From assembly GCA_965261355.1 (NCBI GenBank), contig CBDHDK010000002.1:130456-194455 (forward strand): 64,000 nt of DNA, given 5' to 3'. This DNA comes from Dehalococcoidia bacterium (GTDB lineage Bacteria > Chloroflexota > Dehalococcoidia > Lucifugimonadales > UBA3495). Positions within the stretch are counted from its first letter, which is position 1. Each line of letters begins with the position of its first letter. Position numbers and translations under genes: made by a program. The notes under the pieces were generated by a model, which saw only the letters and a list, made by a program, of their open reading frames with translations, was not told where the DNA came from and did no database searches. This document shows positions 14,815 to 55,849 of this stretch, one piece after another.

Positions 14815-15119
14815 TCTATTATGAGAAAAGCAAGCCAGCGGCGAGAGACGAAGTGTGCCCTTGCAGCGGATGGTAGAGATTGCAACTGCCAAGAATGTTG
14901 CGAAGGCTGTCTAGTCAACGCCGTGTATTTGTGTGGCGAATGTTGAGGCCGTGACTACTGCGACCATAGCGTTAGAGACATGGTGGATTTGTTAGCAAGC
15001 TTTGAGTGCACGGGGCGACCGCTGGATTGATTGGATCCGAATACCAAGTTCATTATTAACTGGCCCAGAAGAACGGACAGAACCAGGAGAAAATCGCTTC
15101 TTGATGGAGGAGCTGCGCG

Positions 15120-17219
15120 ATGGCTACTTACCGCAAGCATGAGGCCCAGGAGTGGGCATGGGAGACGCTGAAGGGGCAGTGGACGACGCTGATCACGCCC
15201 TTTACGCCGGACAATCGCTTCGACCGGGAGGGGATGAAGCGGAACATCCGCCACATCCGCAGCCTGGGCACGGTCGGGGCCGGCTGCGCGTGGGGCATGG
15301 GCGAGTTCTGGAGCCTGACCCACGAGGAGCGGCTGGATGTGATGGACGCGGTGGCCGAGGAAGCCCAATCCTCGCCTGGCAAGGGGAGCTGGCCCATCGG
15401 GGCGCACGTGACGCACACGTCGGCTCCGGAGATGCTGTCGCTGGCGGCCCACGCAGAGGGCAGGGGATACGACCTGCTGATCGTCGCGCCGCCGTACATG
15501 GTGACCAAGACCGAGGAGCAGGTGGTGGAGTACGTGCGGCTCCTGGCCGAGCACACCAACCTGGCCATCATGTTCTACAACTCGCCGCAGTTCGGCATCA
15601 CCATGAGCGTCAACGGGCTCGCCCGCCTGTGCAGCCTGCCCAACGTGGTGGGCGTGAAGGAAGCCAGCTTCAACCAGCAGCTATCCATCGAGGCGCACCT
15701 GACGCTGGGGCAGGAGTCCATCATCAGCACGCCGGACGAGTGGATCTACTTCAAGGGACAGGAGCTGGGCATCAACCAGCAGGTTATGTTCGCCAACACC
15801 TCGGACTGGAGGTTCGATGTCCCGGGCGCCAACAACTACGTGCGCTGGATCGACCGGGCGTGCCAGGAAGACCTGGACGAGACCTTCTACGACAATCACC
15901 TGCGCCGCCTGAACGAGCTTTCGGACGCCTGGTGGACGCGGACGGTGGACAAGTACAACGGCGCGCTGCCGGTATCGCTGGTGAAGCACTGGGGCGAGCT
16001 GATGAACATGGCAGCGGGCAAGCCGCGCCTGCCGCTGCTGGACCTCACTCCCAGCGAGAAGATGCAACTTCGCGAGGAGCTGGAGCCGCTCAAGCCGCGG
16101 GTTACAGAAGCGCGCCCACCCGAGGTCATCTCGGAGCGCATTGAGTCAAGGCCGAAGTACACCCCCCGACCGGTGTACTCCAGGCCGTCGGACCCTCAGT
16201 CGAGAACGGCGTGGCTCACGGGCAACGACAACTTCGCTGCAGGAATGCTGCTGATGGTCAGCGTCCAGAACGTCGATGAGGCGCTGGAGGCCGAGCAGGG
16301 CGGAGCCGACGTGGTGGACGTGAAGAACCTGCAGGAAGCGATGGTGGGCTCGGGCCACCCGTCGACGGTGCGGCAGGTGCGGGGCATCATCCCGGTGGAG
16401 AAGCACGTCAGCGTGACGCTGGGCGTGGTGCCCAACCAAGCGGGCACGGTGGCGATGGCGGTGTACGCGGCCGCTATGATGGACGCGACGTCGGTGAAGG
16501 TGGGGTTCCGCGTAGCCGACTACGACACGGCGGCGGAGGTGCTGCAGGAGTCGCGGCGTGCGCTGGACGGGTTCAACACGAAGCTGGTCGGATCGCTGTT
16601 CGCCGACAACGAGCTGTACGAGGGCGGGCTGGACCCGCACCTGATGGTGCAACTGGCCAAGGACGGCGATTGCGACGGATTCCTGATCGACACGCTGACC
16701 AAGGACGGGCGCAATCTGTTCGACTTCATGCCCGAGCCGGTGCTGCGCCAGATAATTCTGGAGGGCAAGCAACTGGGGATGAGCACGGCGCTGTCGGGAC
16801 ACCTGAAGATCAGCGACCTGGACGAGCTGTCGCGCATCAACCCGGACATCGTGGGCGTTCGCGGCGCGGTCTGCTCGTCGGGCGACCGGGGCCGGGCCGT
16901 GGCGTGGGAGGCGGTTGCCGAGTTCAAGCGGCAGCTGGATCTGCGCAAGACGGGGGAGATTGCCGTTCACAGCGAGCCGGCGCCGGTAACTTCCGCGAAC
17001 GGCTGGGTGGTCATCGACGGACGGGGCAAGAGCTGCGCCGGGGTGATCGCCGCCCTCACGAGGCAGATGGAGCAGGACAAGGAGTCCTTCGTGGAGGCGA
17101 TCCTGGCCGACGCGCTGAACATCTACGACGTCACGCTCTGGGCTGAGCAGGCCGGTCACCGGCTGCTGACGCAGCGCAAGGACCCGGACGGGGCGGTGCG
17201 GGTGCTGATACAGCCGTAA
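15120..17219 (+). CDS. three-domain fusion protein: DapA/DHDPS-family aldolase + MfnB-like (4-HFC-P synthase fold) + TusA-like domain
   Basis: Uninterrupted 699-aa ORF. Residues 1-330 are DHDPS-like with VVGVKEAS. Residues 376-608 carry GADVVDVKN, KVG, IDTLTKDGRNLFD, ALSGH and DIVGVRGAVCSSGDR, as in MfnB. Residues 628-699 are TusA-like (GRGKSCAGV). RBS GGAGGAG lies 7 nt upstream. Confidence 0.8.
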   Translation: MATYRKHEAQEWAWETLKGQWTTLITPFTPDNRFDREGMKRNIRHIRSLGTVGAGCAWGMGEFWSLTHEERLDVMDAVAEEAQSSPGKGSWPIGAHVTHTSAPEMLSLAAHAEGRGYDLLIVAPPYMVTKTEEQVVEYVRLLAEHTNLAIMFYNSPQFGITMSVNGLARLCSLPNVVGVKEASFNQQLSIEAHLTLGQESIISTPDEWIYFKGQELGINQQVMFANTSDWRFDVPGANNYVRWIDRACQEDLDETFYDNHLRRLNELSDAWWTRTVDKYNGALPVSLVKHWGELMNMAAGKPRLPLLDLTPSEKMQLREELEPLKPRVTEARPPEVISERIESRPKYTPRPVYSRPSDPQSRTAWLTGNDNFAAGMLLMVSVQNVDEALEAEQGGADVVDVKNLQEAMVGSGHPSTVRQVRGIIPVEKHVSVTLGVVPNQAGTVAMAVYAAAMMDATSVKVGFRVADYDTAAEVLQESRRALDGFNTKLVGSLFADNELYEGGLDPHLMVQLAKDGDCDGFLIDTLTKDGRNLFDFMPEPVLRQIILEGKQLGMSTALSGHLKISDLDELSRINPDIVGVRGAVCSSGDRGRAVAWEAVAEFKRQLDLRKTGEIAVHSEPAPVTSANGWVVIDGRGKSCAGVIAALTRQMEQDKESFVEAILADALNIYDVTLWAEQAGHRLLTQRKDPDGAVRVLIQP

Positions 17220-17286: not shown

Positions 17287-17329
17287 GGCTGCCGGGGCGT
17301 AAACAGCCGTTCCGGCAGCCATTCTTTTG
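17287..17329 (+). terminator. intrinsic terminator after the fusion gene
   Basis: 9-bp stem GGCTGCCGG/CCGGCAGCC followed by ATTCTTTTGT. Confidence 0.55.
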
Positions 17330-17450: not shown

Positions 17451-17816
17451 TTGACGGTTCTAGGTTGTCACGTTTTACTCGAACTGAGGGACTGTAACCC
17501 CACTCTGCTCAACGACCTCAATTACATACGTCAGGCGATGCTGACGGCCGCGCATGACGTTGGCGCCACAGTCGTCGGAGAGTCCTTTCACCGCTTCAGC
17601 CCCCAAGGCGTCACAGGCATACTGGCCATTGCGGAGTCTCACATCTCCATACATACGTGGCCGGAATATTCGTATGCTGCGGCAGACATCTTTTCCTGCG
17701 GCTCTTCATTCCTGCCGAGAGAAGCGGCCCAACGGCTGGCAGCGCAGTTGGAATCGCGCGATGCGGAAATCAAGGAGATTGAGCGGGGCCTGATAGTTCA
17801 GCCGGTTAGCGGCTGA
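17451..17816 (+). CDS. speH: S-adenosylmethionine decarboxylase proenzyme (class 1B)
   Basis: 121 aa with G.H...EL..C and the self-processing site AESHISIHTWPE. TTG start 9 nt after AGGGAGG. Confidence 0.9.
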   Translation: MTVLGCHVLLELRDCNPTLLNDLNYIRQAMLTAAHDVGATVVGESFHRFSPQGVTGILAIAESHISIHTWPEYSYAAADIFSCGSSFLPREAAQRLAAQLESRDAEIKEIERGLIVQPVSG

Positions 17817-17828
17817 GTCCCCCGACGC

Positions 17829-18740
17829 ATGGAACTCACGGGCAACTGGTTTGCCGAAAGCGTCACCCCGGACCTTGCCGTAATAGCAAGGTTGCGGGCT
17901 GTAATTTTTTCCGGGAGCACCGCTTACCAGAAGGTGGAGGTTCTGGACTCGTACGAGTTCGGCCGAAGCCTGGTTCTCGACGGGAAAACGCAGTCCACGG
18001 AACTGGACGAATTCATCTACCACGAATCGCTGGTGCATCCGGCGATGCTGTGCCACCCCGGTCCGAAGAGCGTCTTCATCGGAGGCGGAGGAGAGGGCGG
18101 CACGCTGCGAGAGGCACTGGCGCACCGTTCGGTGGAAAGCGTCACGATGATCGACCTGGACTCCGAGGTCGTTGAGTTGTGCCGGCAACACCTGCCCGAC
18201 CACCACAAGGGCAGCTTCGACGACCCGCGCCTGACCCTGCTGCACGAGGACGCTCGGGGCTACCTGCAGTCGGAGGGCAACGGCTTCGACGTGATGCTGA
18301 TGGACTTGGTGGACCCGCTGGAGGGAGGGCCGGCCTACCTGCTGTATACCGAGGAGTTCTACCGGATCGCGAAGAGCCGGCTGAACCCGGGTGGTGTGCT
18401 GGTAACGCAGTCTGGGCCCGTGGGTCTGCCCAACCACAAGGAATGCTTCACCACCATCTTCCACACACTGAGCGAGGTATTCGCCCACACGGCGGCGGTA
18501 CAAGTACACGTGCCCGCATTCGAGACGCTGTGGGGATTCACCATCGCCTCCGACGAACCTCTACGCCCTCTGACCGGATCTGCGCTCGACGCCGCGATTT
18601 CGGGGCGGATCAACAATGCGCTCCGGCACTACGACGCGGAGACTCACCAAGGGATGTTCGCGCTGCCCAAGTTCCTGCGTGAAGGCATCGCCGGGGAAAC
18701 ACGGATCAACCGGGACGACGCCCCGGTCTTCATGGTCTAG
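17829..18740 (+). CDS. speE: spermidine synthase (polyamine aminopropyltransferase)
   Basis: 303 aa with LDGKTQSTELDEFIYHE, GGGEGGTLRE and DLVDP motifs. It immediately follows speH. Confidence 0.9.
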   Translation: MELTGNWFAESVTPDLAVIARLRAVIFSGSTAYQKVEVLDSYEFGRSLVLDGKTQSTELDEFIYHESLVHPAMLCHPGPKSVFIGGGGEGGTLREALAHRSVESVTMIDLDSEVVELCRQHLPDHHKGSFDDPRLTLLHEDARGYLQSEGNGFDVMLMDLVDPLEGGPAYLLYTEEFYRIAKSRLNPGGVLVTQSGPVGLPNHKECFTTIFHTLSEVFAHTAAVQVHVPAFETLWGFTIASDEPLRPLTGSALDAAISGRINNALRHYDAETHQGMFALPKFLREGIAGETRINRDDAPVFMV

Positions 18741-20751: not shown

Positions 20752-22647
20752 CTATGCCCGGTCAAGCTGGAACCCTTCGTGCAGCCGGGCCACCGCGCCC
20801 CGCAGCTTTTCGCCGGGGATGATGCAGGTGAGGCTGATTTCGGAGGTGGTAATCATGTCGATATTGACGTCGGCGTCGGCCAGCAACCGGAACATCCTGG
20901 CGGCGAAGCCTGGCCGGACCCGCATTGCCGACCCCACGATGCTGACGGCGGCTATCTCGGTGTCAACGTCGACGTCCATTGCGCCAGCACGATTCGCGGC
21001 GTCTTGTATCGCTGCCCGAGCGGCCGGAAGGTCGGCGCTGCTGACGGTGAAACTGATGTCGGTAGCAGGCTCGGCGCCGGTATCCTGAGGGGCCGTGTTC
21101 TGCACGATGGTGTCGACGCTGACGCCTGCCTCGCTCAGCGGAGCGAAGAGGGTACCGGCAAGGCCGGGCTGGTCGGGCACGCTTCGCACGGTAATCTTGG
21201 CAATCTTGTCCTTGTAGGCCACCCCGGTAATTTTCAGCGGGGCATCTTCAACATCGCCAGACCCCTTCACGTCCTCCGGTAGCGTGCCGGCGTGCGGGTC
21301 GAAGGGTTTGTCGTGGAACCCAAAACTGTCGTTCAGCCCACGGACCGCCTCGACGGCGCTTTCGTTGGAGATAATGCAGGTGGTGCTGATTTCGGAAGTG
21401 GAGATCATGTCGATGTTGGCGCGCCTTTCGCCGAGGGCGCGAAACATCTGGGAGGCAAAGCCGGGGCTGTTCAGCATGCCCGACCCGACGATTGCCACCG
21501 CACCGCTGTCCGGCTTGCCGTCCACCCCGCCGGTCGCGCCCGTGGCTAGGGCCGTTTCCCTCACTTTATCCAGGGCGGTCTCAAAGGCTGCGCGATTTAC
21601 GGTGAAGCTCACGTCGGTTGCGCGGTTGCCGCCGGTGTTCTGCACGATGGTGCCGACGTTAACTCCGGATTCCGCCAGTGGTTCGAACAGGGCGGCGACC
21701 ATGCCCGGTTCATCGGGCACGCCCTTGACGGTAATTCTGGAAACATCGCCGCGGTAGGAAATGCCCCGTACCCTGATGCGGTCTTCAATCGCCTGCCTCG
21801 AGGCGCCATTCTTGCCCTCTGATTCGCATGACGACTGATCGGTCACGGTCCGGTCCTCCCGGGGAGGGCCGGATACTATGGGGAAGCCACCGAATTCTTC
21901 CAGCGAAGTTCCCTGGAGCGCCTTAATCAGCGTACCCGAAGATTTGTTGAAGCTGGAGGCGACCAAAATCGGCACCTGGAACACGCTGCCCAGCTCGATG
22001 GCGCGGGGGTGCATCTTGGCTCCCAGGCTGGCCAGCTCAAGCATCTCGTAATAGGCGATCTCGTCCAGCTTGCGGGCAGCCGGAACGATGCGCGGGTCGG
22101 CCGTGTAGATACCGTCGACGTCTGTATAGATTTCGCAACGGTCCGCACCGAGCGCTCCCGCAATGGCCACTGCGGTGGTGTCTGACCCACCGCGGCCGAG
22201 GGTCGTTATGTCGTCTTCGTCAGTGATGCCCTGGAAACCGGCCACCACGACCACCCTCCCGGACTCCAGTTCCGCCTCCACTCGCTGCACATCCATCCCA
22301 CTGATGCGGGCGCGTCCGAAGGTGGTGTCGGTGTGTATGCCGGCCTGCGGCCCGCTGAGGCTGATCGCATCGCAGTCCATATCAAGGAGAGCCATAGTGA
22401 GCAGGGAACACGAAACCAGCTCACCGGTGGACAGGAGCAGGTCCAGCTCGCGGGCTCGGGGTTCGCGACTCGGGGAAACAGAGCGCGCCCGCGCGATGAG
22501 GTCGTCCGTGGTGTCTCCCATGGCCGATACCACCACCACCACCTCAGACCCCTCATCGTGGGCTTCCTTGACACGCGTGGCGACGTTTCGAATCTTCTCC
22601 ACGTCGGCTACGGAAGACCCCCCATATTTCTGCACTATGCGACCCAT
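20752..22647 (-). CDS. lysC: aspartate kinase with duplicated regulatory (4 x ACT) region
   Basis: 631 aa. The N-terminus IVQKYGGSSV...VVVVSAMGDTTD is aspartokinase. Two successive ACT pairs follow (ISRITVKGVPDEPG... and IAKITVRSVPDQPG...). Confidence 0.9.
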   Translation of the reverse strand: MGRIVQKYGGSSVADVEKIRNVATRVKEAHDEGSEVVVVVSAMGDTTDDLIARARSVSPSREPRARELDLLLSTGELVSCSLLTMALLDMDCDAISLSGPQAGIHTDTTFGRARISGMDVQRVEAELESGRVVVVAGFQGITDEDDITTLGRGGSDTTAVAIAGALGADRCEIYTDVDGIYTADPRIVPAARKLDEIAYYEMLELASLGAKMHPRAIELGSVFQVPILVASSFNKSSGTLIKALQGTSLEEFGGFPIVSGPPREDRTVTDQSSCESEGKNGASRQAIEDRIRVRGISYRGDVSRITVKGVPDEPGMVAALFEPLAESGVNVGTIVQNTGGNRATDVSFTVNRAAFETALDKVRETALATGATGGVDGKPDSGAVAIVGSGMLNSPGFASQMFRALGERRANIDMISTSEISTTCIISNESAVEAVRGLNDSFGFHDKPFDPHAGTLPEDVKGSGDVEDAPLKITGVAYKDKIAKITVRSVPDQPGLAGTLFAPLSEAGVSVDTIVQNTAPQDTGAEPATDISFTVSSADLPAARAAIQDAANRAGAMDVDVDTEIAAVSIVGSAMRVRPGFAARMFRLLADADVNIDMITTSEISLTCIIPGEKLRGAVARLHEGFQLDRA

Positions 22648-37279: not shown

Positions 37280-38430
37280 ATGACCACCATGGCTGAAACG
37301 CTGAGCGGCTACGCATCGTCGCTGCGGTACGAGAACCTGCCGGAAGAGACGGTCCACCTAGCCAAGCGGTTCATCATCGACACCCTCGGTTGCGCTCTGG
37401 GCGGGTACAGCAGCGAACCGGCGCGGGTGGCCCGGGAGATGGCCGGCCTCGTCTCCAGTTCGCACCCCGTAACGGTTATGGGCAGCGGTCGGCACACCAG
37501 CCTGGATCTGGCATCCTTTGCAAACGGCGTCGCCATCCGATACCTCGACTTCAACGACGGCTACACCAGCAACGAGTCGGGCCACCCCAGCGACAGCATC
37601 GCCGCGTCGCTGTCGGCCACTGAGGCGGCGGGCGGCAGCGGAAAGACGTTCATTCTCTCGACGGTGCTGGCCTACGAGGTGTTCTGCCGGCTGTGCGACA
37701 CGGTGGACATCAAGCCCCGCTTCGACCACGTCACCGTTGGCGGCACGGCCAGCGCTCTGGCGGCGGCGCGTGCGTTGGGCCTTACGCCGGAGCAGACGCT
37801 GCAGGCCCTGAACCTGAACGTCGCCTCCAACCTCGCCCTGTACCAGACGCGCATCGGAGACGTGTCGATGTGGAAAGGCTGCGCTTACGCCAACGCCACC
37901 CGCAACGCAATGTTCGCCGTGCAATTGGCGCAGCGCGGCATCACCGGCCCGTCGCCGGTGTACGAGGGCGCGGGCGGCTACTTCAACACGGTCACCGGGC
38001 GTCCCTTCGAACTGGGTAAAATGGGCGGCGACGGCGAGCCCTTCAAGATTGCCGAGTGCAGCATCAAGCGGTTCCCGCTGGGCCAGTACTCCCAGACCAT
38101 CGCGCAGGCGGCCCTCGACGTGCGGGAGCAGGTGCCCGGCGGCATCGCGCCGGAAGCGGTAGCCGAGGTGAACATCGCCACCCTGCAGACTGCGGTGAAC
38201 ATCATGGCGGGCGACGCCGAGAAGTGGCGTCCCGCCAACCGCGAGACCGCCGACCACTCGATGCCATACACCACCGCCATAGCGCTGCTGTATGGTGGCG
38301 TGGCAAGCCGTCACTTCGACGACGAGTTCCTGTTCGACGAGACGTTGCTGGAGCTGGTGAGCAAGGTGAACGTGTCGGTGTCTGAAGAGGCCAACCGCCG
38401 CGTGCCGGAGGCGATGCTGTGCGACCTAGA
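37280..38430 (+). pseudogene. MmgE/PrpD-family protein, 5' portion (interrupted by IS)
   Basis: Starts MTTMAETLSGYASSLRYENLPEETVHLAKRFIIDTLGCALGG after AGGAGG. Native sequence ends at ...PEAMLCDLE, and the following 14 codons to the stop are IS-derived. Confidence 0.85.
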
Positions 38431-40261
38431 AGCCGGGCCGAAAAGCCCTGGATGGGGAGAGAGATTTCGGCAGTAAAGCCGGGGCGAACAGAATCTGGGA
38501 CCACAGCAGTCCGAGCCGGACAGCGCCGAAAATGGCCGTAGCATGGGCGACCACACCGTGGGAAACAGCCTGGACATCACTGGGGACGGCACTGAGGACG
38601 GCGCGGTGGCGCGGAAGCCCACCGCCGACACTGTCCGACAGCTCGATTTTGCCCGCCACCAGGGTCAGGTTGGCCACTGTAGCCGCTAGGTACAGCTGGA
38701 ATCGCGTCTTGGCGCGTCCGAAGTAGCGGGACTGGCGAATGCCCAACTGGACCAGTCGGGCCAATCTGTGCTCGACCACCACGCGTCGCGCTCGATATTC
38801 GTCATACCCGGCGCTCTGTTGCAACGCACGGGCCTGTTGCAGGAGAGCCTCCTGGGGATGGATCAGCACCCGCCGTCCCTTCCTGCCCTTGGCCGAGATG
38901 CACTGAGACCGCAGGGGACATGTCATACATTCGGACCCGTCGAACTGGAAGGCCTGCAAGTGGTGTATCCGACCCGCGGCATCCGTACGCCGTCCCGCTG
39001 GCACTATGGTGTGGGTGACCTGCCCTGCCGGACAGGTGCAACTGCCCGCCACCAGGTCGATGACAAAGTCATTCTTGGGAAAGCGCTGCCGGTCGGGCCG
39101 TCCCGGCACCCGGGCAATCAGGGTGCGGCCCGCGTCGGCGAAGGTCTGCCTGGTAGCTCCGTCTCCATAGGCGGCGTCGCCCATGGCCTCCTGCACCGGC
39201 ACACCGGTGTTGGCCTCGCTCTGTTCTACCAGTTCCAGCGCCCCCAGGTTGTCCGGAGCGTTGCCCGGCAGTACCTCCACGGCGGTGATCAGCTGGGTGT
39301 CGGTGTCAACCACAATCGCCGCCTTGTGTCCGTCGAAGCGTCTCCTGCTGCTCTTGTGCCCGTGGCGCATCTCAGGGTCGTGCACCGACATCATCCGGTC
39401 CTTGCTCACCCCGTCCTTGAGGCTCACGCCGTCATCGCCGTCGCCGTCGCCACCCTTGCGCTCAATGTCTTGGAGCAGCAACTGCCCCAGCAGTTCCGCC
39501 GCCGCCACTATCTGCTGACGCTCAGCACCGTCCTCGGGCAACTCCCCCTGGGCCAGCCGCGATAATTCCAAGAGCCGGTCCGCGTCTCCCACAATCCCCG
39601 CCAGCAGTGCCGTCCGCGCCCGCTTGTCCGACCAGTCGATGGTCGCCTCTCCCTTGATGCTGGAGGCGAGGTACCGCCCGTATCCCCGGGCCTTGGCCCA
39701 TTTCCCGACGCTGATTCCCTCAACCTGCGCCAGCGCCCGCATCAGTTTGACGATCCCGTCGGCCAGCAGATTGTAGGTGTCCCTCACCGCGCCCCGGCCC
39801 AGGATGTTGGTCGTGTCCAGAGCCACCTTCATGCTGCGCCTCTTCAGGTAGCCCGACTCCCGGGCGAGGCGCACGCTGGACTCGAATACCTCCCGCACCC
39901 TGTCGTGCAGGATCAGCTGGGCCCGGAACACCTGGAGCGTGCTTTTGGCGAAGGGCCTGTCCTCCACCTCAATCCCCAGAGCCACCTTCCAGCGGATGTC
40001 GAAGTCGGCCCGGGCCTTGGCCTCGGCGTCGCTCACCTTGTCGTGGGTCTGCAACAGCAGCGCCGTGGCCAGCAGGCTGGGCGGCACGCTGTCCCGGCCG
40101 TTGTCAGCGCAGTAGAACACCGCGAAATCGGAGTCCTGGAACAGCCGGCCCCGCAGGGAAGCCAGCAGACCGTAGAAGGTGTCCTTCCCCACGTGGTCCA
40201 GGTACAACCGGTCCGCTTCCCAAAGACCCCTCTGGTCCGAACGCTCTCCCAGCATTCTCAA
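38426..40261 (-). CDS. IS5/IS1182-type DDE transposase
   Basis: 611 aa. It has a DUF772-like N-terminus (GRDSVPPSLLATALLLQTHDKVSDAEA...DIRWKVALG), a DDE region (VVDTDTQLITAVEVLPGNAPD, GDAAYGDG) and VVEHRLARL...RQSRYFGRAKT. Its stop codon lies in the duplicated CTAG. Confidence 0.85.
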   Translation of the reverse strand: MRMLGERSDQRGLWEADRLYLDHVGKDTFYGLLASLRGRLFQDSDFAVFYCADNGRDSVPPSLLATALLLQTHDKVSDAEAKARADFDIRWKVALGIEVEDRPFAKSTLQVFRAQLILHDRVREVFESSVRLARESGYLKRRSMKVALDTTNILGRGAVRDTYNLLADGIVKLMRALAQVEGISVGKWAKARGYGRYLASSIKGEATIDWSDKRARTALLAGIVGDADRLLELSRLAQGELPEDGAERQQIVAAAELLGQLLLQDIERKGGDGDGDDGVSLKDGVSKDRMMSVHDPEMRHGHKSSRRRFDGHKAAIVVDTDTQLITAVEVLPGNAPDNLGALELVEQSEANTGVPVQEAMGDAAYGDGATRQTFADAGRTLIARVPGRPDRQRFPKNDFVIDLVAGSCTCPAGQVTHTIVPAGRRTDAAGRIHHLQAFQFDGSECMTCPLRSQCISAKGRKGRRVLIHPQEALLQQARALQQSAGYDEYRARRVVVEHRLARLVQLGIRQSRYFGRAKTRFQLYLAATVANLTLVAGKIELSDSVGGGLPRHRAVLSAVPSDVQAVSHGVVAHATAIFGAVRLGLLWSQILFAPALLPKSLSPSRAFRPGF

Positions 40262-45298: not shown

Positions 45299-45379
45299 TA
45301 GAATCCGGCGGCGACCCGGGCCCTCGTTTGCGGTTCCGGCGGGGTGCGGGAGTCTATCGCAGGGCAGGGTGTATCCGGC

Positions 45380-46078
45380 ATGGAAATTCGCATGGGCAGC
45401 CTGGTGCGGGACGCGCGGGAAGCAACCGGCACGGCCATCATCATCGACGTGTTCCGGGCGTTCACCACGGCGGCCATCGCCTTCGACCGGGGAGCGACGC
45501 AGATTACGCTGGTGGCCGAGGCGGAGGACGCGCTGGAGCTGCACCGCAGCGGGGTCGGCGACCTGCTGATGGGCGAGGTCGACGGAAAGCGGCCCGAGGG
45601 GTTCGACTTCGGCAACTCCCCGTACGAGATTTCTCAGGCCGACGTGGCGGGCAAGAGCCTGGTGCAGTCCACCCGCGCCGGCACCGTGGGCGTGGCTGCA
45701 GCGGCCGATGCCGCCGACACGATTTTCCTCGGCTCCTTCGTAGTGGCACAGGCCACTACGGACGCAATCTTGCGGGACTCGCCAGACGTAGTGTCCATTA
45801 TCGCGATGGGAGACCAGGGCCGGGTGCGCTCCGACGAGGACGAGCAGTGCGGCATCTACCTGCGCAACATCATCGAAGGCCGGAAGCCCGACTTCGAGGC
45901 CGTGAAGTCGCTGATAATGACCGGCGGCGCTACGCAGAAGTTCTTCGACGACCGGCAACCGCAGTTCCATCCGCAGGACGTGGAGCTGGCGCTGCAGGCT
46001 GACCGCTACCCCTTCGCCATGAGCATCACCCGCGAGGACGGGCTGCTCGTGGCGCGAAAGCATGTGCCGGGAGCCTAG
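45380..46078 (+). CDS. 2-phosphosulfolactate phosphatase (ComB) family protein
   Basis: Contains IIIDVFRAFTTAA, GEVDGKRPEGFDFGNSP and IIAMGD motifs. An alternative GTG start at 45344 is possible. Confidence 0.7.
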   Translation: MEIRMGSLVRDAREATGTAIIIDVFRAFTTAAIAFDRGATQITLVAEAEDALELHRSGVGDLLMGEVDGKRPEGFDFGNSPYEISQADVAGKSLVQSTRAGTVGVAAAADAADTIFLGSFVVAQATTDAILRDSPDVVSIIAMGDQGRVRSDEDEQCGIYLRNIIEGRKPDFEAVKSLIMTGGATQKFFDDRQPQFHPQDVELALQADRYPFAMSITREDGLLVARKHVPGA

Positions 46079-48690: not shown

Positions 48691-49914
48691 ATGAAACTGT
48701 GCTTTTTCCACCTGATGCCCTACCAGGGGCTGCCCAGCAACTTTGAACAAGATTACCACAGCGTATGGGTTGACGTGCCCAACTCGCTGTTCGACCCCAG
48801 CCAGGGCCACCGGTTGTATAACGACTACCTTGACGAGTTGAAGTTCGCCGAGGCCATGGGCTTCGACGGCATCTGCGTCAACGAGCACCACGCCAACGCC
48901 TACGGTCTAATGCCATCGCCGAACCTGATGGCGTCGGCCATGGCGCGCGACACGTCCGACGCCGCCATCGTGGTGCTGGGCAATAGCCTGGCCCTCTACA
49001 ACCCGCCCATCCGCGTTGCCGAAGAGTTCGCCATGCTGGACGTGCTCAGCGGCGGGCGGCTCATCGCCGGGTTCCCGCTGGGGACGGCCATGGACACCAT
49101 CTTCGGTTACGGCCAGGTGCCCATCACGCTGCGCGAGAAGTACCAGGAGGCCCACGACCTCGTCGTGAAGGCTTGGACCGAGCGCGAGCCCTTCTCCTTC
49201 AACGGCAAGTACAACCAGCAGCGCTACGTCAACATCTGGCCGCGACCCTACCAGCAGCCGCGCCCGCCCATCTGGGTGCCCGGCAGCGGCAGCCTCGAAA
49301 CCTGGGACTGGACCATACGCAACGACTACGTCTACTGCTACCTTTCCTACTCCGGCTACAAGGTCGGCAAAACCGTGCTTGACGGCTTCTGGGAGGAGAT
49401 GGACCGGCAGGGCAAGGAGTTCAATCCCTACCACGCCGGCTTCCTGCAACTCGTCGCGGTCTCGGAGACCGACGCCCAGGCCGAAGAATACAAGGAGTCC
49501 ATCGAGTACTTCTTCAAGAAGTGCCTCCACATCCACTCCGGCTTCGGCAACCCGCCGGGCTACCGCTCGGTGCGCAGCAACAACTCCCAGCTGTCCAACG
49601 CCACCACCCAGTCGCGGGAAGACCAGCTCAAGGAGTTCACCTGGACCGACTACCTGGAGGCGGGCAACGTCATCGTCGGCGGGCCCGAGACGGTACGGCA
49701 GCACCTGGCCCATGCCATCAAGGAGCTCAAGGTGGGCAACCTGATGCTGCTGCTCCAGTTCGGCGACATGCCCAAGGAGCTGGCGATGAAGAACACCGAG
49801 CTCTTCGCCCGTGAGGTCATGCCCTACGTCCGCGACCTCTGGTCTGAGTACGACAACCGTTGGTGGCCCGAAGGCGTCTCCAACCCCACCTCTCCCGCGC
49901 CCGTCGCGGTGTAA
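48691..49914 (+). CDS. LLM-class (luciferase-like) flavin-dependent oxidoreductase
   Basis: 407 aa with GFDGICVNEHH, LGNSLALYNPPIRVAEEFAMLDVLSGGRLIAGF and a C-terminal GGPETV...LLLQFG. Confidence 0.85.
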   Translation: MKLCFFHLMPYQGLPSNFEQDYHSVWVDVPNSLFDPSQGHRLYNDYLDELKFAEAMGFDGICVNEHHANAYGLMPSPNLMASAMARDTSDAAIVVLGNSLALYNPPIRVAEEFAMLDVLSGGRLIAGFPLGTAMDTIFGYGQVPITLREKYQEAHDLVVKAWTEREPFSFNGKYNQQRYVNIWPRPYQQPRPPIWVPGSGSLETWDWTIRNDYVYCYLSYSGYKVGKTVLDGFWEEMDRQGKEFNPYHAGFLQLVAVSETDAQAEEYKESIEYFFKKCLHIHSGFGNPPGYRSVRSNNSQLSNATTQSREDQLKEFTWTDYLEAGNVIVGGPETVRQHLAHAIKELKVGNLMLLLQFGDMPKELAMKNTELFAREVMPYVRDLWSEYDNRWWPEGVSNPTSPAPVAV

Positions 49915-50008
49915 GTTCCGGTCATAACAGCGAGCGCAAAACGAGGGCGTCCTCCGGCTGACGAGGGCGCCCCTGATTTACAAAGAGCAGAAAGCAGAGG
50001 ATATACGG

Positions 50009-50905
50009 TTGACCACCAGCGAGATTTCCGCAAACGACCCCCACCCACGCCTGCGCGTCGACGTCGGCGGCATCGAGATGGCCTACGTCGACACTGACGC
50101 TTCCATCGCGCTGTCCGACGGCGCTGTCGTGTTCCTGCACGGCAATCCCACGTCGTCCTACCTGTGGCGCAACATCATCCTTCACGTATCGCCTCTGGCC
50201 CGCTGCCTCGCCCCCGACCTGGTGGGAATGGGCGGGTCCGACGCCACCACCGACGGCTCCTACCGCTTCGCCGACCACAGCCGCCACCTGGACGCCTGGT
50301 TCGACGCGGTGCTGCCTGACGGCCCGGTGACGCTGGTGGTGCACGACTGGGGCTCGGCCCTGGGCTTCCACTGGGCACGGCGCCACGCCGAGCGGGTGCG
50401 CGGGCTGGTCTACATGGAGGCCATCGTGCGTCCGGTGACCTGGGACGAGTGGCCCGAGGCGGCGCGGCAGGTCTTCCAGGGTTTCCGTTCCGAGGCCGGA
50501 GAAACCGTGGTGCTGGAGCGAAACATCTTCGTCGAACGCGTGTTGCCGGGAAGCACAATCAACGGCATCAGCGACGAGGCGATGGAAGTTTACCGCCGCC
50601 GCTACGTCGAACCCGGCGAGTCGCGCCGGCCCACGCTGTCGTGGCCCCGCGAGATTCCCATCGAAGGTGAACCGCCCGACGTGGTGGCCATCGTCGCCGA
50701 GTACGCCGAATGGCTGTCGCGGACTCCCACGCCCAAGTTGTTCGTCAACGCCGAGCCTGGCGCCATCCTCACCGGCCCGCAGCGCGAGTTCTGCCGCACC
50801 TTCGCCAACCAGCGCGAGGTAACAGTCCCCGGCGTCCACTTCATCCAGGAAGACTCGCCGCATGAGATAGGGGCGGCCATCGCGGAGTGGTACGCGGTGC
50901 TGTGA
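50009..50905 (+). CDS. haloalkane dehalogenase (HLD-II type alpha/beta hydrolase)
   Basis: Contains FLHGNPTSSYLWRN, the nucleophile context VVHDWGSALG and the catalytic His in HFIQEDSP. TTG start after GCAGAGGA. Confidence 0.88.
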   Translation: MTTSEISANDPHPRLRVDVGGIEMAYVDTDASIALSDGAVVFLHGNPTSSYLWRNIILHVSPLARCLAPDLVGMGGSDATTDGSYRFADHSRHLDAWFDAVLPDGPVTLVVHDWGSALGFHWARRHAERVRGLVYMEAIVRPVTWDEWPEAARQVFQGFRSEAGETVVLERNIFVERVLPGSTINGISDEAMEVYRRRYVEPGESRRPTLSWPREIPIEGEPPDVVAIVAEYAEWLSRTPTPKLFVNAEPGAILTGPQREFCRTFANQREVTVPGVHFIQEDSPHEIGAAIAEWYAVL

Positions 50906-50994
50906 ATTGGTGACAGTTGTCCCTTGCGAGACTCTGGGCGGTCCGTGTTATTCTGAAAGCATTCCACATTTTTCAGAACTCACAGGACTGTTTG

Positions 50995-52089
50995 ATGCCT
51001 CCGTCAACCACCACTTGGGCCCTTGATGGCCACACCATTGGTAAGCACTTGGTTCTCAGGCACTACCTAAACGCCTAGCTACCAATCATGACCCGGTGGA
51101 ATGGTAGGGTGCTCTTCATTGATGCCTTTGCTGGCCCCGGAGACTATACCGGAGGCGAAGATGGTTCTCCTGTAATAGCATTGAAGTCCTTTCTGGAGCA
51201 CAACTCTCGAAACCGAATGTTGAGTAACATTCGGTTCTTGTTCATAGAGGCCGATCCAGAAAGATCAGATCACTTGGAGAGCGTCTTGGAGGGCTTTGGG
51301 CAACAGATACCAAGCAATTGTGCTTACAAAGTCATTCAGGGTAAGTTCGACGAGACTCTGAATGAAGGTTTAGATGCTATTGAGGCGCACAACAAACAGC
51401 TTGCGCCGTCGTTCGTCATGATAGACCCCTTCGGCGTATCGGGAACTCCAATGAAGACAATAGGCTGAGTTCTAGAAAACCCAAAGTCCGAAGTGTACGT
51501 TTCTCTGATGTACAGAGAAATCAATCGGTTTCTAGACCACCCGAGTTTTGAACACCACCTTAACGATTTGTTCGGATGTCCCGATTGGAAGCAAGCAAAG
51601 AACATTCCTGACTCTTACCAGAAAAAGTGTTTTCTGTTTGATTTATACAGGAGGCAACTAAAGAACAACGGAGCCAAACAGGTTCTGCATTTTGAGTTAT
51701 ACGAGGGAAATGCACTAGTATATGCCATTTTCTTTGGAACGCAGAGCCTCGAGGGCTGCGATAAAATGAAGCAAGCAATATGGAAAGTGGCGCCCTTCGG
51801 CGATTTCAAATTCAAGAGTGGATTAAATAATCGGCTCACTTTCGGCGCGAGCGTTATCGACTTCAACATTTTACAGACTGAACTAACTGATGCGTTTGGG
51901 TTTGGCAATTGGGCTACGATCGAAAGTGTCATGGATTTTATGAAATCCGACAAGACTGTATTCACTTCCAGTCACCTTAAAACTCAAACCTTGAGACCTA
52001 TGGAGGGAAAAGGGGAGCTAGAAGTTCGCGCAGGCAGCCGAAAGAAGTCTGGCACTTATCCTAAAGGAACCGTTCTGAGATTCGTTTAG
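50995..52089 (+). pseudogene. TcmP (three-Cys-motif partner protein) family, two in-frame stops
   Basis: A single frame runs from the ATG at 50995 to the stop at 52089. It is interrupted by TAG 51076-51078 (HYLNA*LPIM, where family members have an aromatic/Trp) and TGA 51466-51468. It carries the methyltransferase-like IDAFAGPG and IDPFG motifs. Low GC. Confidence 0.7.
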
Positions 52090-52143
52090 TAAGGAAAATT
52101 TCTTCAAATAAATACGGGGCACATTGCGATTTCCGGCGGAATT

Positions 52144-53701: not shown

Positions 53702-53785
53702 TTTCTGCCCGATGCGCCGTTGTTCCTCACGAAGGGACGTCACGATTTGGCCGGAAATGGCAGGCTTTTTGAAAACATTGCAACG

Positions 53786-54622
53786 ATGACAGCCGACAGT
53801 ACCGACATACAGCTCGAGAACCTGCGCAACATCCTGCGCGAGATGGGCTCGGTCGTGACCGCCTTCTCCGGAGGCGTGGACAGCGCGTTGGTGGCGGTAG
53901 CGGCGCACCAGGTGCTGGGCGATAGCGCCTTGGCGGCGACCGCCGTGTCGCCCGCCCTGGCTTCGCGCGAGCTTGAGGAAGCCGAAGGGCTTGCGCGTCA
54001 GTTCGGAATCGCCCACCGGGTCATCCGCACCAACGAGATGGAGCGGGAGGGCTACACCACCAACTCGCCCCGCCGCTGCTATTTCTGCAAAACCGAGCTC
54101 TACACCCACCTGACTGCCCTGGCCCAGGCCGAGGGTTACGCCTGGGTCGCCAACGGCGCAAACACCGATGACCAGGGCGACTATCGTCCCGGCATGGAGG
54201 CCGCGGCGGAGCACCGCGCCCGCAGCCCGTTGCTGGAAGCCGGGCTCGACAAGGCGGCGGTGCGCGCCATCGCCCGGCAGTTGGAGATTCCGGTGTGGGA
54301 CAAGCCGGCCCAGCCGTGCCTGTCGTCGCGTGTCCCCTACGGTACGCCCGTAACAGTGGAAACGCTGTCCAAGATCGAGCGGGCCGAGGACTTCCTGCAC
54401 GGCCTGGGTATGCGCGAAGTCCGGGCTCGGCACCACGACAAGCTCTGCCGCGTCGAGGCCTCAGAGGCCGACATGGAAATCGCCTTCCGGCACCGCGAGG
54501 AAATCGTCGCCGCGCTGAAGAAGATAGGCTACCTGTGGGTGTCGCTGGACCTCGCTGCCTTGCGTTCCGGCAGCCTCAACGACCAGCTGAAGCTGTCTAC
54601 TGCTGAACCCCCCCGCCGGTAG
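53786..54622 (+). CDS. larE: ATP-dependent sacrificial sulfur transferase LarE (PP-loop ATPase)
   Basis: PP-loop VVTAFSGGVDS and the conserved Cys context SPRRCYFCK. It is followed by larC and larB. Confidence 0.8.
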   Translation: MTADSTDIQLENLRNILREMGSVVTAFSGGVDSALVAVAAHQVLGDSALAATAVSPALASRELEEAEGLARQFGIAHRVIRTNEMEREGYTTNSPRRCYFCKTELYTHLTALAQAEGYAWVANGANTDDQGDYRPGMEAAAEHRARSPLLEAGLDKAAVRAIARQLEIPVWDKPAQPCLSSRVPYGTPVTVETLSKIERAEDFLHGLGMREVRARHHDKLCRVEASEADMEIAFRHREEIVAALKKIGYLWVSLDLAALRSGSLNDQLKLSTAEPPRR

Positions 54623-54625
54623 CGT

Positions 54626-55849
54626 ATGCGTATCGCCTACATCCAGTCTGTCGGCGGGGCCAGCGGCGATATGCTGCTGGGCGCGCTGGTTGATGCGGGC
54701 CTTTCCCTGGACGTTCTTCGAAGCGAACTTGCAAGGCTGCCCGTCGCGGGCTACTCCATCGACGCCGCTGAGGAGACCCGTTGCGAGGTGCGCGGCACCC
54801 ACCTGAAGGTGCACCTGGAAGACCGCACCCGCCACACCCCTCTTGCGCTGCTCCAGGCCGTCGAAGAAAGCGGCCTCGACTCCTGCGTGAAGCAGCATGC
54901 TGTCTCTGTGCTCCAGGCGCTGTGGCAGGCCGAGGCGCGCGTGCACGGCGAATCGGAGGAAGCGCTTGAGCTGGAAGAGCTCGGCAGCGTCGACACCCTA
55001 GTGGACGTCGTCGGATTCTGCACCGGGCTCAGGGAGCTTGGCATAGAAAAAGTCTACGCCGCTCCTCTGGTGCTGGGCGAAACTGCACCGGCGCGCCGAC
55101 CGGGCGGATACTCCAACCCCGCGCCTGCCACGCTGGAGTTGATTGCCGCGAGGGGCGCTCCCGCAGCCGCCGACAGTCCCGTCCATGCCGGGGCGGGCGA
55201 GCTCACGACGCCGACGGGGGCTGCGCTCATAACGACCCTGGCCGAGTTCCGCCGGCCCGCCTTTTCTGTCCAGCACATTGGAGTTGGCCTCGGCACGAAG
55301 GACCCGCCGGGATTCGCCAACGCGCTTAGAGTATGGCTGGGTGAAACGGAAGGGGCGCACACCGAAGAGAAGCCCGACATCTTCCAGCCGGCCAGCGTGG
55401 TGCTGCTGGAGACCAACCTCGACGACGCCCCCGGGCTGGTGCTGGGCTACACGCAGGAGCGACTGTTCGCTCTCGGCGCGCTGGACGTTTGGCACACTCC
55501 GGTGCAGATGAAGAAGAACCGCCCCGGCGCAGTGCTGTCGGTGTTGGTGCCGCCTCACCTGGAGCAGGCCGCAGTCGAGCTGATCCTGCGGGAAACGCCG
55601 ACGCTCGGCATCCGCTCCCGTCAGGTCGACCGCTACGTTGCCGACCGGCACAGCGTCACCGTCGAGACCGAGTTCGGCCCCGTATCCGTCAAGGTGAAGT
55701 CGCTGGCCTCAACCAATGGGGGCTTGGAACCTATCAGCGCCGCACCCGAGCCCGACGACTGCCGCCGCATTGCCATTGAGACCGGCCTGCCCTTCCAGGA
55801 AGTCTACCAGCGGGTTGCCGAGGCCGCCCGGCAACAGCTCCCGGTCTGA
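54626..55849 (+). CDS. larC: nickel-pincer cofactor biosynthesis protein LarC (nickel insertion, DUF111)
   Basis: 407 aa with the N-terminus MRIAYIQSVGGASGDMLLGALVDAG. This is a full-length fused form. Confidence 0.85.
   Translation: MRIAYIQSVGGASGDMLLGALVDAGLSLDVLRSELARLPVAGYSIDAAEETRCEVRGTHLKVHLEDRTRHTPLALLQAVEESGLDSCVKQHAVSVLQALWQAEARVHGESEEALELEELGSVDTLVDVVGFCTGLRELGIEKVYAAPLVLGETAPARRPGGYSNPAPATLELIAARGAPAAADSPVHAGAGELTTPTGAALITTLAEFRRPAFSVQHIGVGLGTKDPPGFANALRVWLGETEGAHTEEKPDIFQPASVVLLETNLDDAPGLVLGYTQERLFALGALDVWHTPVQMKKNRPGAVLSVLVPPHLEQAAVELILRETPTLGIRSRQVDRYVADRHSVTVETEFGPVSVKVKSLASTNGGLEPISAAPEPDDCRRIAIETGLPFQEVYQRVAEAARQQLPV

Follow-up and report, generated by a model that had tools for sequence, protein, structure and literature searches.

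MfnB, the 4-HFC-P (4-(hydroxymethyl)-2-furancarboxaldehyde-phosphate) synthase of methanofuran biosynthesis (EC 4.2.3.153), converts a pair of glyceraldehyde-3-phosphate molecules to 4-HFC-P. In ThiG with ThiS, and in BexX with its sulfur-carrier proteins, a barrel binds a keto-sugar phosphate through a lysine Schiff base, and a carrier encoded by an adjacent gene gives the sulfur. Here we report on a gene that brings an MfnB-like barrel, a second Schiff-base barrel and a putative sulfur-carrier domain together in one reading frame. It lies in a 64,000-nucleotide stretch of the genome of a Dehalococcoidia bacterium (contig CBDHDK010000002.1, positions 130,456 to 194,455; hereafter the window) as an uninterrupted open reading frame (ORF) of 699 codons at 15120-17219 on the + strand, with its stop codon at 17217-17219 (Table 1). 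The product consists of a part like dihydrodipicolinate synthase (DHDPS), an MfnB-like part and a TusA-like part, referred to below as D, M and T. Judged by sequence, none of the three appears to be an orthologue of its textbook enzyme. The three parts form a module that is common to Thermoplasmata- and Marsarchaeota-type archaea and Chloroflexota, and our leading, still tentative, reading is that the ORF is the single-chain form of a self-contained three-component biosynthetic enzyme that would draw on triose phosphate, a 2-oxo acid and carrier-bound sulfur. The domains are of known kinds; the three-component system and its presumed product are not.

Three domains and how they differ from the known enzymes

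A first-pass annotation of the sequence had described a single 699-residue ORF with three parts, and this description held: Pfam recognises DHDPS, 4HFCP_synth and TusA in turn (the last below its cutoff, and then supported by relatives and by fold), and all of the motifs quoted at the time (VVGVKEAS, GADVVDVKN, KVG, IDTLTKDGRNLFD, ALSGH, DIVGVRGAVCSSGDR and GKSCAGV) are present. The approximate domain boundaries given then agree with the Pfam matches and with the AlphaFold model of the whole protein (76 sequences; mean predicted local distance difference test score, pLDDT, 81; predicted template-modelling score, pTM, 0.52), in which three folded domains at residues 1-329, 376-612 and 629-699 are joined by two disordered linkers. 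Among the 83 fusions in our survey, linker 1 ranges from 25 to 63 residues and linker 2 from 4 to 27, with little sequence conservation. The sole conserved piece of linker 1 is WLxGNxNFAxG (residues 364-375, 16209-16244), just before the M domain; it is missing from the two- and three-gene forms described below, whose M proteins begin directly with M-x-LMVSVQ, and it is therefore new to the triple fusion. About 150 members of the family keep the reactive residues of each part: K180 in D, D400, K402, K460, D524, K528 and R590 in M, and C639 in T.

Table 1. Features of the fusion gene in window coordinates.
Feature	Position	Strand	Remarks
Whole ORF	15120..17219	+	Full-length relatives: >120 clusters at 71-95% identity; 80 genomes at 64-94%
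Shine-Dalgarno sequence GGAGGAG	15106..15112	+	7 nt 5' of the ATG; read from sequence
D domain, residues 1-329	15120..16106	+	Pfam PF00701; predicted Schiff-base enzyme, distinct DHDPS/NAL subfamily
Y153 codon	15576-15578	+	Invariant in D domain
K180 codon	15657-15659	+	Invariant in D domain
Linker 1, residues 330-375	16107..16244	+	Disordered; Pro/Ala/Arg-rich; pLDDT <50 at 330-371
M domain, residues 376-612	16245..16955	+	MfnB-like class I aldolase barrel; Pfam PF04476
K402 codon	16323-16325	+	Predicted M-domain Schiff-base Lys, counterpart of MfnB K27
Linker 2, residues 613-628	16956..17003	+	Disordered; pLDDT <50 at 618-628
T domain, residues 629-699	17004..17216	+	TusA-like beta-alpha-beta-alpha-beta-beta domain
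C639 codon	17034-17036	+	Invariant; N-terminus of helix 1 (helix 1 starts at 639)
Intrinsic-terminator-like hairpin and T-rich tail	17287..17329	+	3' of the stop codon

The M part is matched by Pfam 4HFCP_synth (PF04476) at residues 378-602 with an E-value of 3.6e-54 (184 bits against a cutoff of 22.4), the alignment covering profile positions 1-227 of 228. Its closest solved relative is the MfnB MJ1099 (PDB 4rc1, E 1.3e-41), and Foldseek comparison with 4rc1 and 4u9p, both of MJ1099, gave template-modelling (TM) scores of 0.90-0.93, root-mean-square deviations (rmsd) of 1.6-2.2 Å and identities of 36-37%. MfnB residues D25, K27 (which forms the Schiff base), K85, D151, K155 and R217 have been shown or proposed to be essential (PMC6604932, PMC11365854), and their counterparts D400, K402, K460, D524, K528 and R590 are found in 98-100% of 51 sampled subfamily sequences (the family alignment holds 155). 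M shares with MfnB, then, a fold that is colinear over the whole profile, the Schiff-base Lys, a second Lys, both Asp residues, the substrate-binding Lys and the phosphate-loop Arg.

The differences emerged from profile scores and from a comparison with 66 canonical MfnB representatives. M reaches 183 and 174 bits with the NCBIfam equivalog models NF002573 and NF002575, whose cutoffs are 341 and 304, and a profile hidden Markov model (HMM) of the subfamily separates the two groups bimodally, with 380-470 bits for M domains and at most 220 for the 66 canonical proteins. Residues D61, Y122 and A186, near-invariant among the canonical representatives (99, 91 and 93%, respectively), are replaced by V436, F494 and S559 in 98-100% of the subfamily, and in the AlphaFold model each of the three ends a predicted barrel strand, the kind of position at which the active sites of barrels are located. 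The original MfnB-like assignment thus stands at the level of fold and of the six residues but not at that of orthology (183 against 341 bits): M belongs to a subfamily that is sister to MfnB. It would have kept the machinery for Schiff-base and aldol chemistry, with changes in some acid/base steps of furan formation. Because two near-invariant polar residues of MfnB are apolar here, the product of M may differ from, and is probably not identical to, 4-HFC-P.

Pfam DHDPS (PF00701) matches the D part over residues 18-222 (89 bits, cutoff 22.1; E 2.8e-25), as do many DapA and NanA structures in the PDB, at E-values of about 1e-14. Its AlphaFold pLDDT is mostly above 90, and Foldseek aligned it with structures of DHDPS, N-acetylneuraminate lyase (NAL) and KdgD (TM 0.79-0.87, identity 17-24%). 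With the DHDPS/NAL superfamily, which includes DapA, NAL, KdgD and the archaeal 2-keto-3-deoxy-(6-phospho)gluconate, or KD(P)G, aldolases, D shares the barrel and the C-terminal helical domain, a K-E-A motif with the Schiff-base Lys and a Y-N-x-P motif with the catalytic Tyr. These two residues, K180 (DapA K161) and Y153 (DapA Y133), are present in 100% of 61 sampled family sequences, conservation of the domain having been assessed in 126. In DapA, T44, Y107 (both catalytic triad partners) and the motif G-T-T-G-E characterise the active site, and R138 binds aspartate semialdehyde. In D, T44 is replaced by G or N, T45 by M, Y107 by M or I and R138 by Q, and an invariant W58 stands where DapA has G43 (the landmark residues of the E. 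coli DapA sequence used for this mapping agreed). Besides W58, the invariant motifs specific to the family are FYNSPQFG, KEASF, S-x-PDE and QQVMF-x-NTSDWRFD; an eight-residue insertion that bears the invariant SDWRFD sets D apart from the rest of the superfamily. The TIGR00674 dapA model gave 71.5 bits against a cutoff of 206, every NCBIfam model scored far below its cutoff on D, and the only one to align over the whole domain (24-328), that of the archaeal KD(P)G aldolases, did so weakly (E 3.7e-10). D therefore looks like a Schiff-base enzyme of the DHDPS/NAL superfamily that is not DapA. Of the initial label 'DapA-type', the superfamily survived; of the catalytic and substrate-binding set of DapA itself, only the Schiff-base Lys and one Tyr are kept.

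The T part required more than one line of evidence. In the whole protein, Pfam TusA (PF01206) matches residues 631-698 with an E-value of 5.6e-5 and 23.4 bits, below its 28.6-bit cutoff; the T domain scored alone reaches 28.7 bits. The same Pfam model is matched by 21 of 22 diverse family members (E <0.01, best E 7.5e-9), and a profile of the T family finds the TusA/SirA-like protein Ta1170 of Thermoplasma (PDB 1pav, E 8.2e-5), with C639 aligned to the Cys of its CPGP motif. AlphaFold modelled the T domain alone with a pLDDT of 90.7, and this model superimposes on SirA-like 3hz7 (TM 0.77/0.81, rmsd 1.5 Å), on E. coli TusA/YhhP 1dcj (TM 0.76/0.73, rmsd 1.7 Å), on the TusA of the IscS complex, 3lvj_C (TM 0.74/0.75, rmsd 2.1 Å), and on YeeD in 8k1r (TM 0.80); Foldseek also returned unrelated small alpha/beta proteins, at lower TM. 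The motif D633-G634-x4-C639-x-G641, followed by W674 and G679-H680, is the TusA signature without its prolines; C639, G641 and W674 are conserved in the T family, and C639 is invariant in about 150 archaeal and bacterial sequences. TusA assignment thus holds at the level of fold and family, to judge by the models. T resembles TusA, SirA and YeeD (TsuB) in fold, in the position of the Cys at the N-terminus of helix 1 and in the D-x-x-G...C and W...G-H signatures. It differs from TusA in having C-(A/T/K)-G in place of C-P-x-P, so that the earlier observation of a retained Cys and lost prolines applies to the whole family; in being fused to, or translationally coupled with, an aldolase-type barrel; and in having no association with DsrE, IscS, YeeE or tRNA thiolation proteins.

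Neighbouring genes, pairs and a single protein

Stand-alone relatives of D form a distinct DHDPS subfamily with the same unusual motifs, and their surroundings are informative. At the archaeal locus L081, a stand-alone D adjoins a 322-residue MfnB-like plus TusA-like protein whose identity with residues 376-690 of the fusion is 58%. A search with that protein returned MfnB-like proteins of about 250 residues and 71-77% identity in Marsarchaeota and Thermoplasmata, as well as MfnB-TusA proteins of about 325 residues in other Dehalococcoidia and Chloroflexi. On Thermoplasmata-type contigs, an MfnB-like gene is followed by a gene for a 94-residue TusA-like protein and then by a DHDPS-like gene, all co-directional. 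Marsarchaeota have the MfnB-like gene and then the TusA-like one, other Chloroflexota have a DHDPS-like gene followed by an MfnB-TusA fusion, adjacent or with a 4-nt overlap (L089), and the SAR202-type Dehalococcoidia lineage has one D-M-T ORF. Gene order is thus M-T-D in archaea and D-MT in bacteria; typical split-form loci are L087, L084, L088, L089 and L081.

We took a census of 170 loci with custom HMMs of the three parts, 80 of the loci coming from a metagenome scan. Single D-M-T ORFs were found in 83, separate co-directional M, T and D genes in 32, and a D gene followed by an M-T fusion in 21; D is on the opposite strand in six, and is co-directional and more than 600 bp away in one. The remaining loci are on contigs too short to judge, or are two loci of stand-alone D paralogues without M, apart from five loci, considered below, in which M and T have no D nearby. 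Wherever the contig extends far enough, T follows M. Unlike MfnB, this subfamily is always partnered with a TusA-like protein, in unfused, two-gene and one-ORF forms, and usually with a DHDPS-like one as well. The two stand-alone D paralogues, P0324 (L082) and P0277 (L083), were rejected as guides to function because they have no MfnB-like neighbour; their scores with the subfamily HMM, 242 and 402 against 500-586, indicate different enzymes.

In a neighbour-joining tree of the M part, the bacterial M-T proteins form a clade, the triple fusions form a contiguous group and the archaeal genes stand separate; one truncated contig is the only fused form that does not cluster. The grouping of the triple fusions is consistent with one origin. 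The M-T fusion of archaeal L081 sits within the archaeal group, independent of the bacterial M-T clade, so that M-T fusion arose more than once. Between archaea and bacteria, identity is 62-64% for M and 45-48% for D; within T, overall identity falls to 29%. No fourth gene recurs with the module, the commonest non-module family being present in 13 of 87 loci. That gene orders differ, that fusion recurred and that no further partner is shared make a strong case, on genomic grounds, for the three proteins acting together in one process.

The genes on either side of the fusion in the window, acs upstream and speH-speE downstream, were considered as operon partners and rejected, since they are kept only at 73% identity or above, as expected of inherited synteny. 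A speH-type S-adenosylmethionine (AdoMet) decarboxylase and a spermidine synthase (17451-18740) lie directly downstream in 50 of the 53 relatives of at least 73% identity (L001-L052). The pair is inverted in place in the 73-80% group and lost in the 64-71% group and in all split forms, and its link to the fusion is probably inherited synteny; the two enzymes yield methylthioadenosine. In the 64-71% group, the fusion lies between GYD, ThiD-type kinase, IleRS and Fpg genes and CoxMSL-like genes, and the surroundings of the split forms differ again. Within that group (L053-L080), a CoxM/CoxS/CoxL-type molybdenum hydroxylase operon is directly 3' of the fusion in 16 of 28 relatives, at about 0.4-6.5 kb, and a ThiD/PdxK-type kinase is upstream in 22 of 28; like the Cox operon, the kinase is specific to the lineage and is not found with other forms of the module.

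The fusion had been called unusual at the outset, and in its own lineage it is not rare. More than 120 protein clusters of 71-95% identity cover its full length, and 183 species-representative genomes encode a relative, the best 80 of the 183 all being full length at 64-94% identity. The hosts of these 80 are Dehalococcoidia, SAR202 or 'Chloroflexota' metagenome-assembled genomes (MAGs), and several are complete chromosomes (OZ242027.1 and OZ242013.1 are examples with the fusion). In a library clustered at 50% identity, the whole architecture is a single cluster; the next matches are fragments, followed by stand-alone single-domain proteins at 44% or less. Within a large clade of Dehalococcoidia/SAR202 type, the fusion is thus the norm. 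The one exception among the hosts is a contig assigned to Planctomycetota (L042, JADFOJ010000064.1); its triple fusion, of 75% identity, groups with Chloroflexota sequences, and its label is probably a binning error. Public records name these proteins 'hypothetical', 'dihydrodipicolinate synthase family' or '(5-formylfuran-3-yl)methyl phosphate synthase'. A database search for the architecture, as first proposed, therefore shows it to be widespread in one lineage, and a description of the three-part module was not found in the searchable full-text literature, nor was any paper pairing an MfnB and DHDPS fusion, or TusA with furan, aldolase or dihydrodipicolinate. Matches to 'DUF556' in PMC10364804 proved to be prefix matches to DUF5565 and were set aside. 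The initial remark that the combination fits no named pathway is borne out by these searches.

A proposed route and its alternatives

How might the three parts work together? In the scheme that we tentatively prefer, the MfnB-like barrel would bind triose phosphate as a Schiff base on K402 and form a C6 aldehyde or ketone related to 4-HFC-P. The DHDPS-like barrel would bind a 2-oxo acid (pyruvate is the simplest candidate) to K180 as a Schiff base and would join it to the aldehyde made by M, much as sialic-acid lyase or NahE-type aldolases do. T would carry a persulfide on C639, whose sulfur would go to an intermediate, a carbonyl or an enone, bound in one of the barrels. The pathway would end in a small metabolite or cofactor precursor that contains sulfur, a methanofuran or lysine pathway compound being unlikely. 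ThiG with ThiS and BexX offer a functional analogy only, and no homology is claimed: ThiS has a ubiquitin-like fold and a C-terminal thiocarboxylate whereas T has a TusA fold and a proposed Cys persulfide, and here, unlike in those systems, a second Schiff-base enzyme is part of the set. The co-localisation of the parts and their independent fusions lend weight to the first-pass suggestion that a furan-type or sulfur-containing metabolite may be made by channelled synthesis. A narrower version, possible but clearly less probable than the general scheme, is that the module is the complete synthase of a new cofactor or redox buffer, either a heterocycle that contains sulfur or a thiol of low molecular weight. 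Candidates would then include a thio-analogue of the furan unit of methanofuran and a C6-C9 phosphate of the thiophene or thiosugar type. Triose phosphate, pyruvate and persulfide sulfur would be its building blocks, and it would be common to the abundant SAR202-type Chloroflexota of the deep ocean and of sponges and to the soil and hot-spring archaea (Thermoplasmata, Marsarchaeota).

Several observations weigh against this scheme. The CPxP motif by which characterised TusA proteins are known is absent, with C-(A/T/K/Q/R)-G-(V/I/A/L) in its place throughout the T family. Genes for sulfur mobilisation (IscS/SufS, rhodanese, ThiF-type) are not consistently nearby in 87 loci. In five loci, those of Marsarchaeota among them, M and T are present and D is missing for at least 3 kb around, and D may therefore be separable from an M-T core. 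The AlphaFold check proposed at the outset defined no contacts between domains; with a pTM of 0.52 and disordered linkers, the model has no defined inter-domain arrangement, which leaves channelling without structural support. Genes for reactions of tetrahydromethanopterin (H4MPT) and methanofuran have been reported in some Thermoplasmatales and Chloroflexi (PMC5020050), which also favours the methanofuran alternative taken up below. Every mechanistic step, moreover, is a prediction from sequence and models.

The alternative that survives best, though we consider it rather unlikely, grants that the parts cooperate and denies T a part in sulfur transfer: T would dock, regulate or tether an aldehyde (as a thiohemiacetal), and a furan-type aldehyde and pyruvate would together give a C9 compound free of sulfur. 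The missing CPxP motif and the lack of conserved sulfur-mobilising neighbours fit this view, non-catalytic roles exist for TusA-fold domains, the lower-TM Foldseek matches of T include unrelated small alpha/beta proteins, and a reactive MfnB-type aldehyde would gain from being handed over to the next active site. However, the Cys is invariant across archaeal and bacterial sequences even though overall T identity falls so low, it aligns with the persulfide-carrying Cys of TusA-family proteins, and T keeps the signature by which TusA binds partners (D-x-x-G ahead of the Cys, W and G-H beyond it).

Less probable again is the view that M is this lineage's 4-HFC-P synthase for a methanofuran- or methylofuran-type cofactor in H4MPT-linked C1 metabolism, with D and T accessory or unrelated. 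The MfnB match is full length and highly significant in both sequence and fold, all six known catalytic or binding residues of MfnB are kept, and the Prokaryotic Genome Annotation Pipeline (PGAP) labels some archaeal members '(5-formylfuran-3-yl)methyl phosphate synthase'. Yet M scores at about half the equivalog cutoffs, its subfamily is cleanly apart from the 66 canonical representatives and has lost D61 and Y122, and methanofuran is free of sulfur and needs no DHDPS-type step, while T always and D usually are coupled to M. As the first-pass annotation had noted, methanofuran and H4MPT genes (mfn, fae, mtd, mch, fhc, fwd) are lacking from the 64-kb window, none being found by Pfam among its ~45 ORFs; mfnA, mfnC-F and user enzymes are likewise absent from the window, and none is a conserved neighbour in the 170 loci. 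Unlike MfnB, the module thus has no methanofuran genes near it, and its named hosts (Marsarchaeota, Thermoplasmata MAGs, Dehalococcoidia/SAR202) are not known methanogens. The searchable literature held no paper linking SAR202 and (formyl)methanofuran.

A catabolic or salvage role, in which D would cleave a 2-keto-3-deoxy sugar acid (or its phosphate) like the archaeal KD(P)G aldolases and so supply pyruvate together with a triose (phosphate, or a thio or sulfo analogue) for M, seems improbable. It draws on the weak KD(P)G aldolase match over the whole of D, on the catabolic-looking contexts of stand-alone D paralogues (L083) and on the methylthioadenosine-generating speH-speE pair beside the gene in close relatives; but the more distant fusions and all the split forms lack that synteny, the module has no conserved transporter, regulator or dehydrogenase beside it, and the gene is single-copy-like, strongly conserved and codon-optimised, a better fit to housekeeping biosynthesis. 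A link to loss of the 1-deoxy-D-xylulose 5-phosphate (DXP) pathway, through thiazole or pyridoxal phosphate (PLP) synthesis, was also considered, and was rejected because Dehalococcoidia/SAR202 are reported to use the methylerythritol phosphate (MEP) pathway (PMC6107057). That the fusion is an artefact of assembly or gene calling can be dismissed with near certainty: a single indel could mimic it where D and M-T genes are adjacent or overlap by 4 nt, as in other Chloroflexota (L089), but the frame is kept in 83 of 83 single-ORF loci from many samples, complete chromosomes among them, while linker 1 varies in length and sequence, the fused forms group in the tree with one truncated contig apart, and an identical protein is encoded on an independent 22.9-kb contig.

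Expression signals and genomic surroundings

The gene has the monocistronic look first ascribed to it, with a ribosome-binding site just upstream of the ATG and a terminator-like hairpin downstream (17287-17320), whose 13-bp stem has 10 G-C pairs and is followed by a T-rich tail. An Rfam ctRNA match at the hairpin is due to chance (20 bits against a gathering score of 50). GC content at third codon positions (GC3) is 0.91, equal to that of the acetyl-CoA synthetase gene and among the window's highest, which suggests strong expression. A riboswitch in the 305-nt region 5' of the fusion was considered and rejected: the region had no Rfam match at E-values up to 1, it lacks conservation among relatives (column identity 37%), and part of it is a decayed small ORF. 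Loci of seven relatives gave no Rfam riboswitch matches either. Much of this 'leader' (14850-15095) is a broken copy, with one frameshift and two stops, of a Cys-rich ORF of about 90 residues that is intact in some relatives, e.g., L015 (...CVCSGWADCDHHACCGGCPDNPDYGCGECW...NQD*), where it ends about 25 nt before the ribosome-binding site of the fusion. It is missing from many other relatives and is therefore not part of the module; its product could be a metal-binding protein or a peptide precursor.

The window as a whole is a housekeeping region of a SAR202-type genome (Pfam, ~45 ORFs), with genes for PriA, ribosomal protein L19, cyanate lyase, acetyl-CoA synthetase, AdoMet decarboxylase, spermidine synthase, aspartokinase, FabD, RNase J, FtsK, a ComB-like phosphatase, a luciferase-like monooxygenase, a LarE/LarC-like pair and MnmA. 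At 53720-55846, a LarE-like PP-loop protein (weak NAD_synthase and Asn_synthase matches) adjoins LarC (Ni_insertion, E 5e-109); genes of this type serve synthesis of the nickel-pincer nucleotide cofactor, another sulfur-inserting cofactor pathway. The ComB-like 2-phosphosulfolactate phosphatase and the luciferase-like monooxygenase with its GC3 of 0.91 (45344-46075 and 48691-49911) belong to gene types that we take to be typical of organosulfur and recalcitrant-carbon metabolism in SAR202. At 20755-22647, an unusually long aspartokinase (631 residues, about four ACT domains) adjoins a GHMP kinase, probably homoserine kinase. Between 34984 and 41638, a DDE transposase gene (38429-40261, - strand) has an ORF of odd composition on either side, one of 742 residues (GC content at first codon positions, GC1, 0.80), in which a C-terminal DNA polymerase III delta domain is the sole Pfam match, and one of 415 residues (GC1 0.83) with no Pfam match. 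Local GC content dips to 0.557 at 50000-52100, where two ORFs have low GC3 (51088-51468 and 51493-52089); by its composition this segment may be recently acquired DNA.

Implications

Three enzyme types have been locked together by evolution as neighbours, as a pair and as one protein, with M identity of 62-64% across two prokaryotic domains. Such a combination of co-localisation, fusion and conservation is among the strongest purely genomic signals of a joint process, and the process is one that corresponds to no pathway now associated with these families. Knowing the product would put right automatic annotations such as 'dihydrodipicolinate synthase family protein' and '(5-formylfuran-3-yl)methyl phosphate synthase', from which metabolic reconstructions could mistakenly deduce that lysine or methanofuran is made. 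As a reagent the single-chain form is convenient, since all three predicted activities would come from one clone. The hosts include the SAR202-type Dehalococcoidia, a major group of the dark ocean and of sponge symbionts without a cultured model, as well as peat and hot-spring archaea, and the identity of the product could reveal a new cofactor or thiol in these organisms and a new route by which sulfur enters a skeleton derived from sugar.

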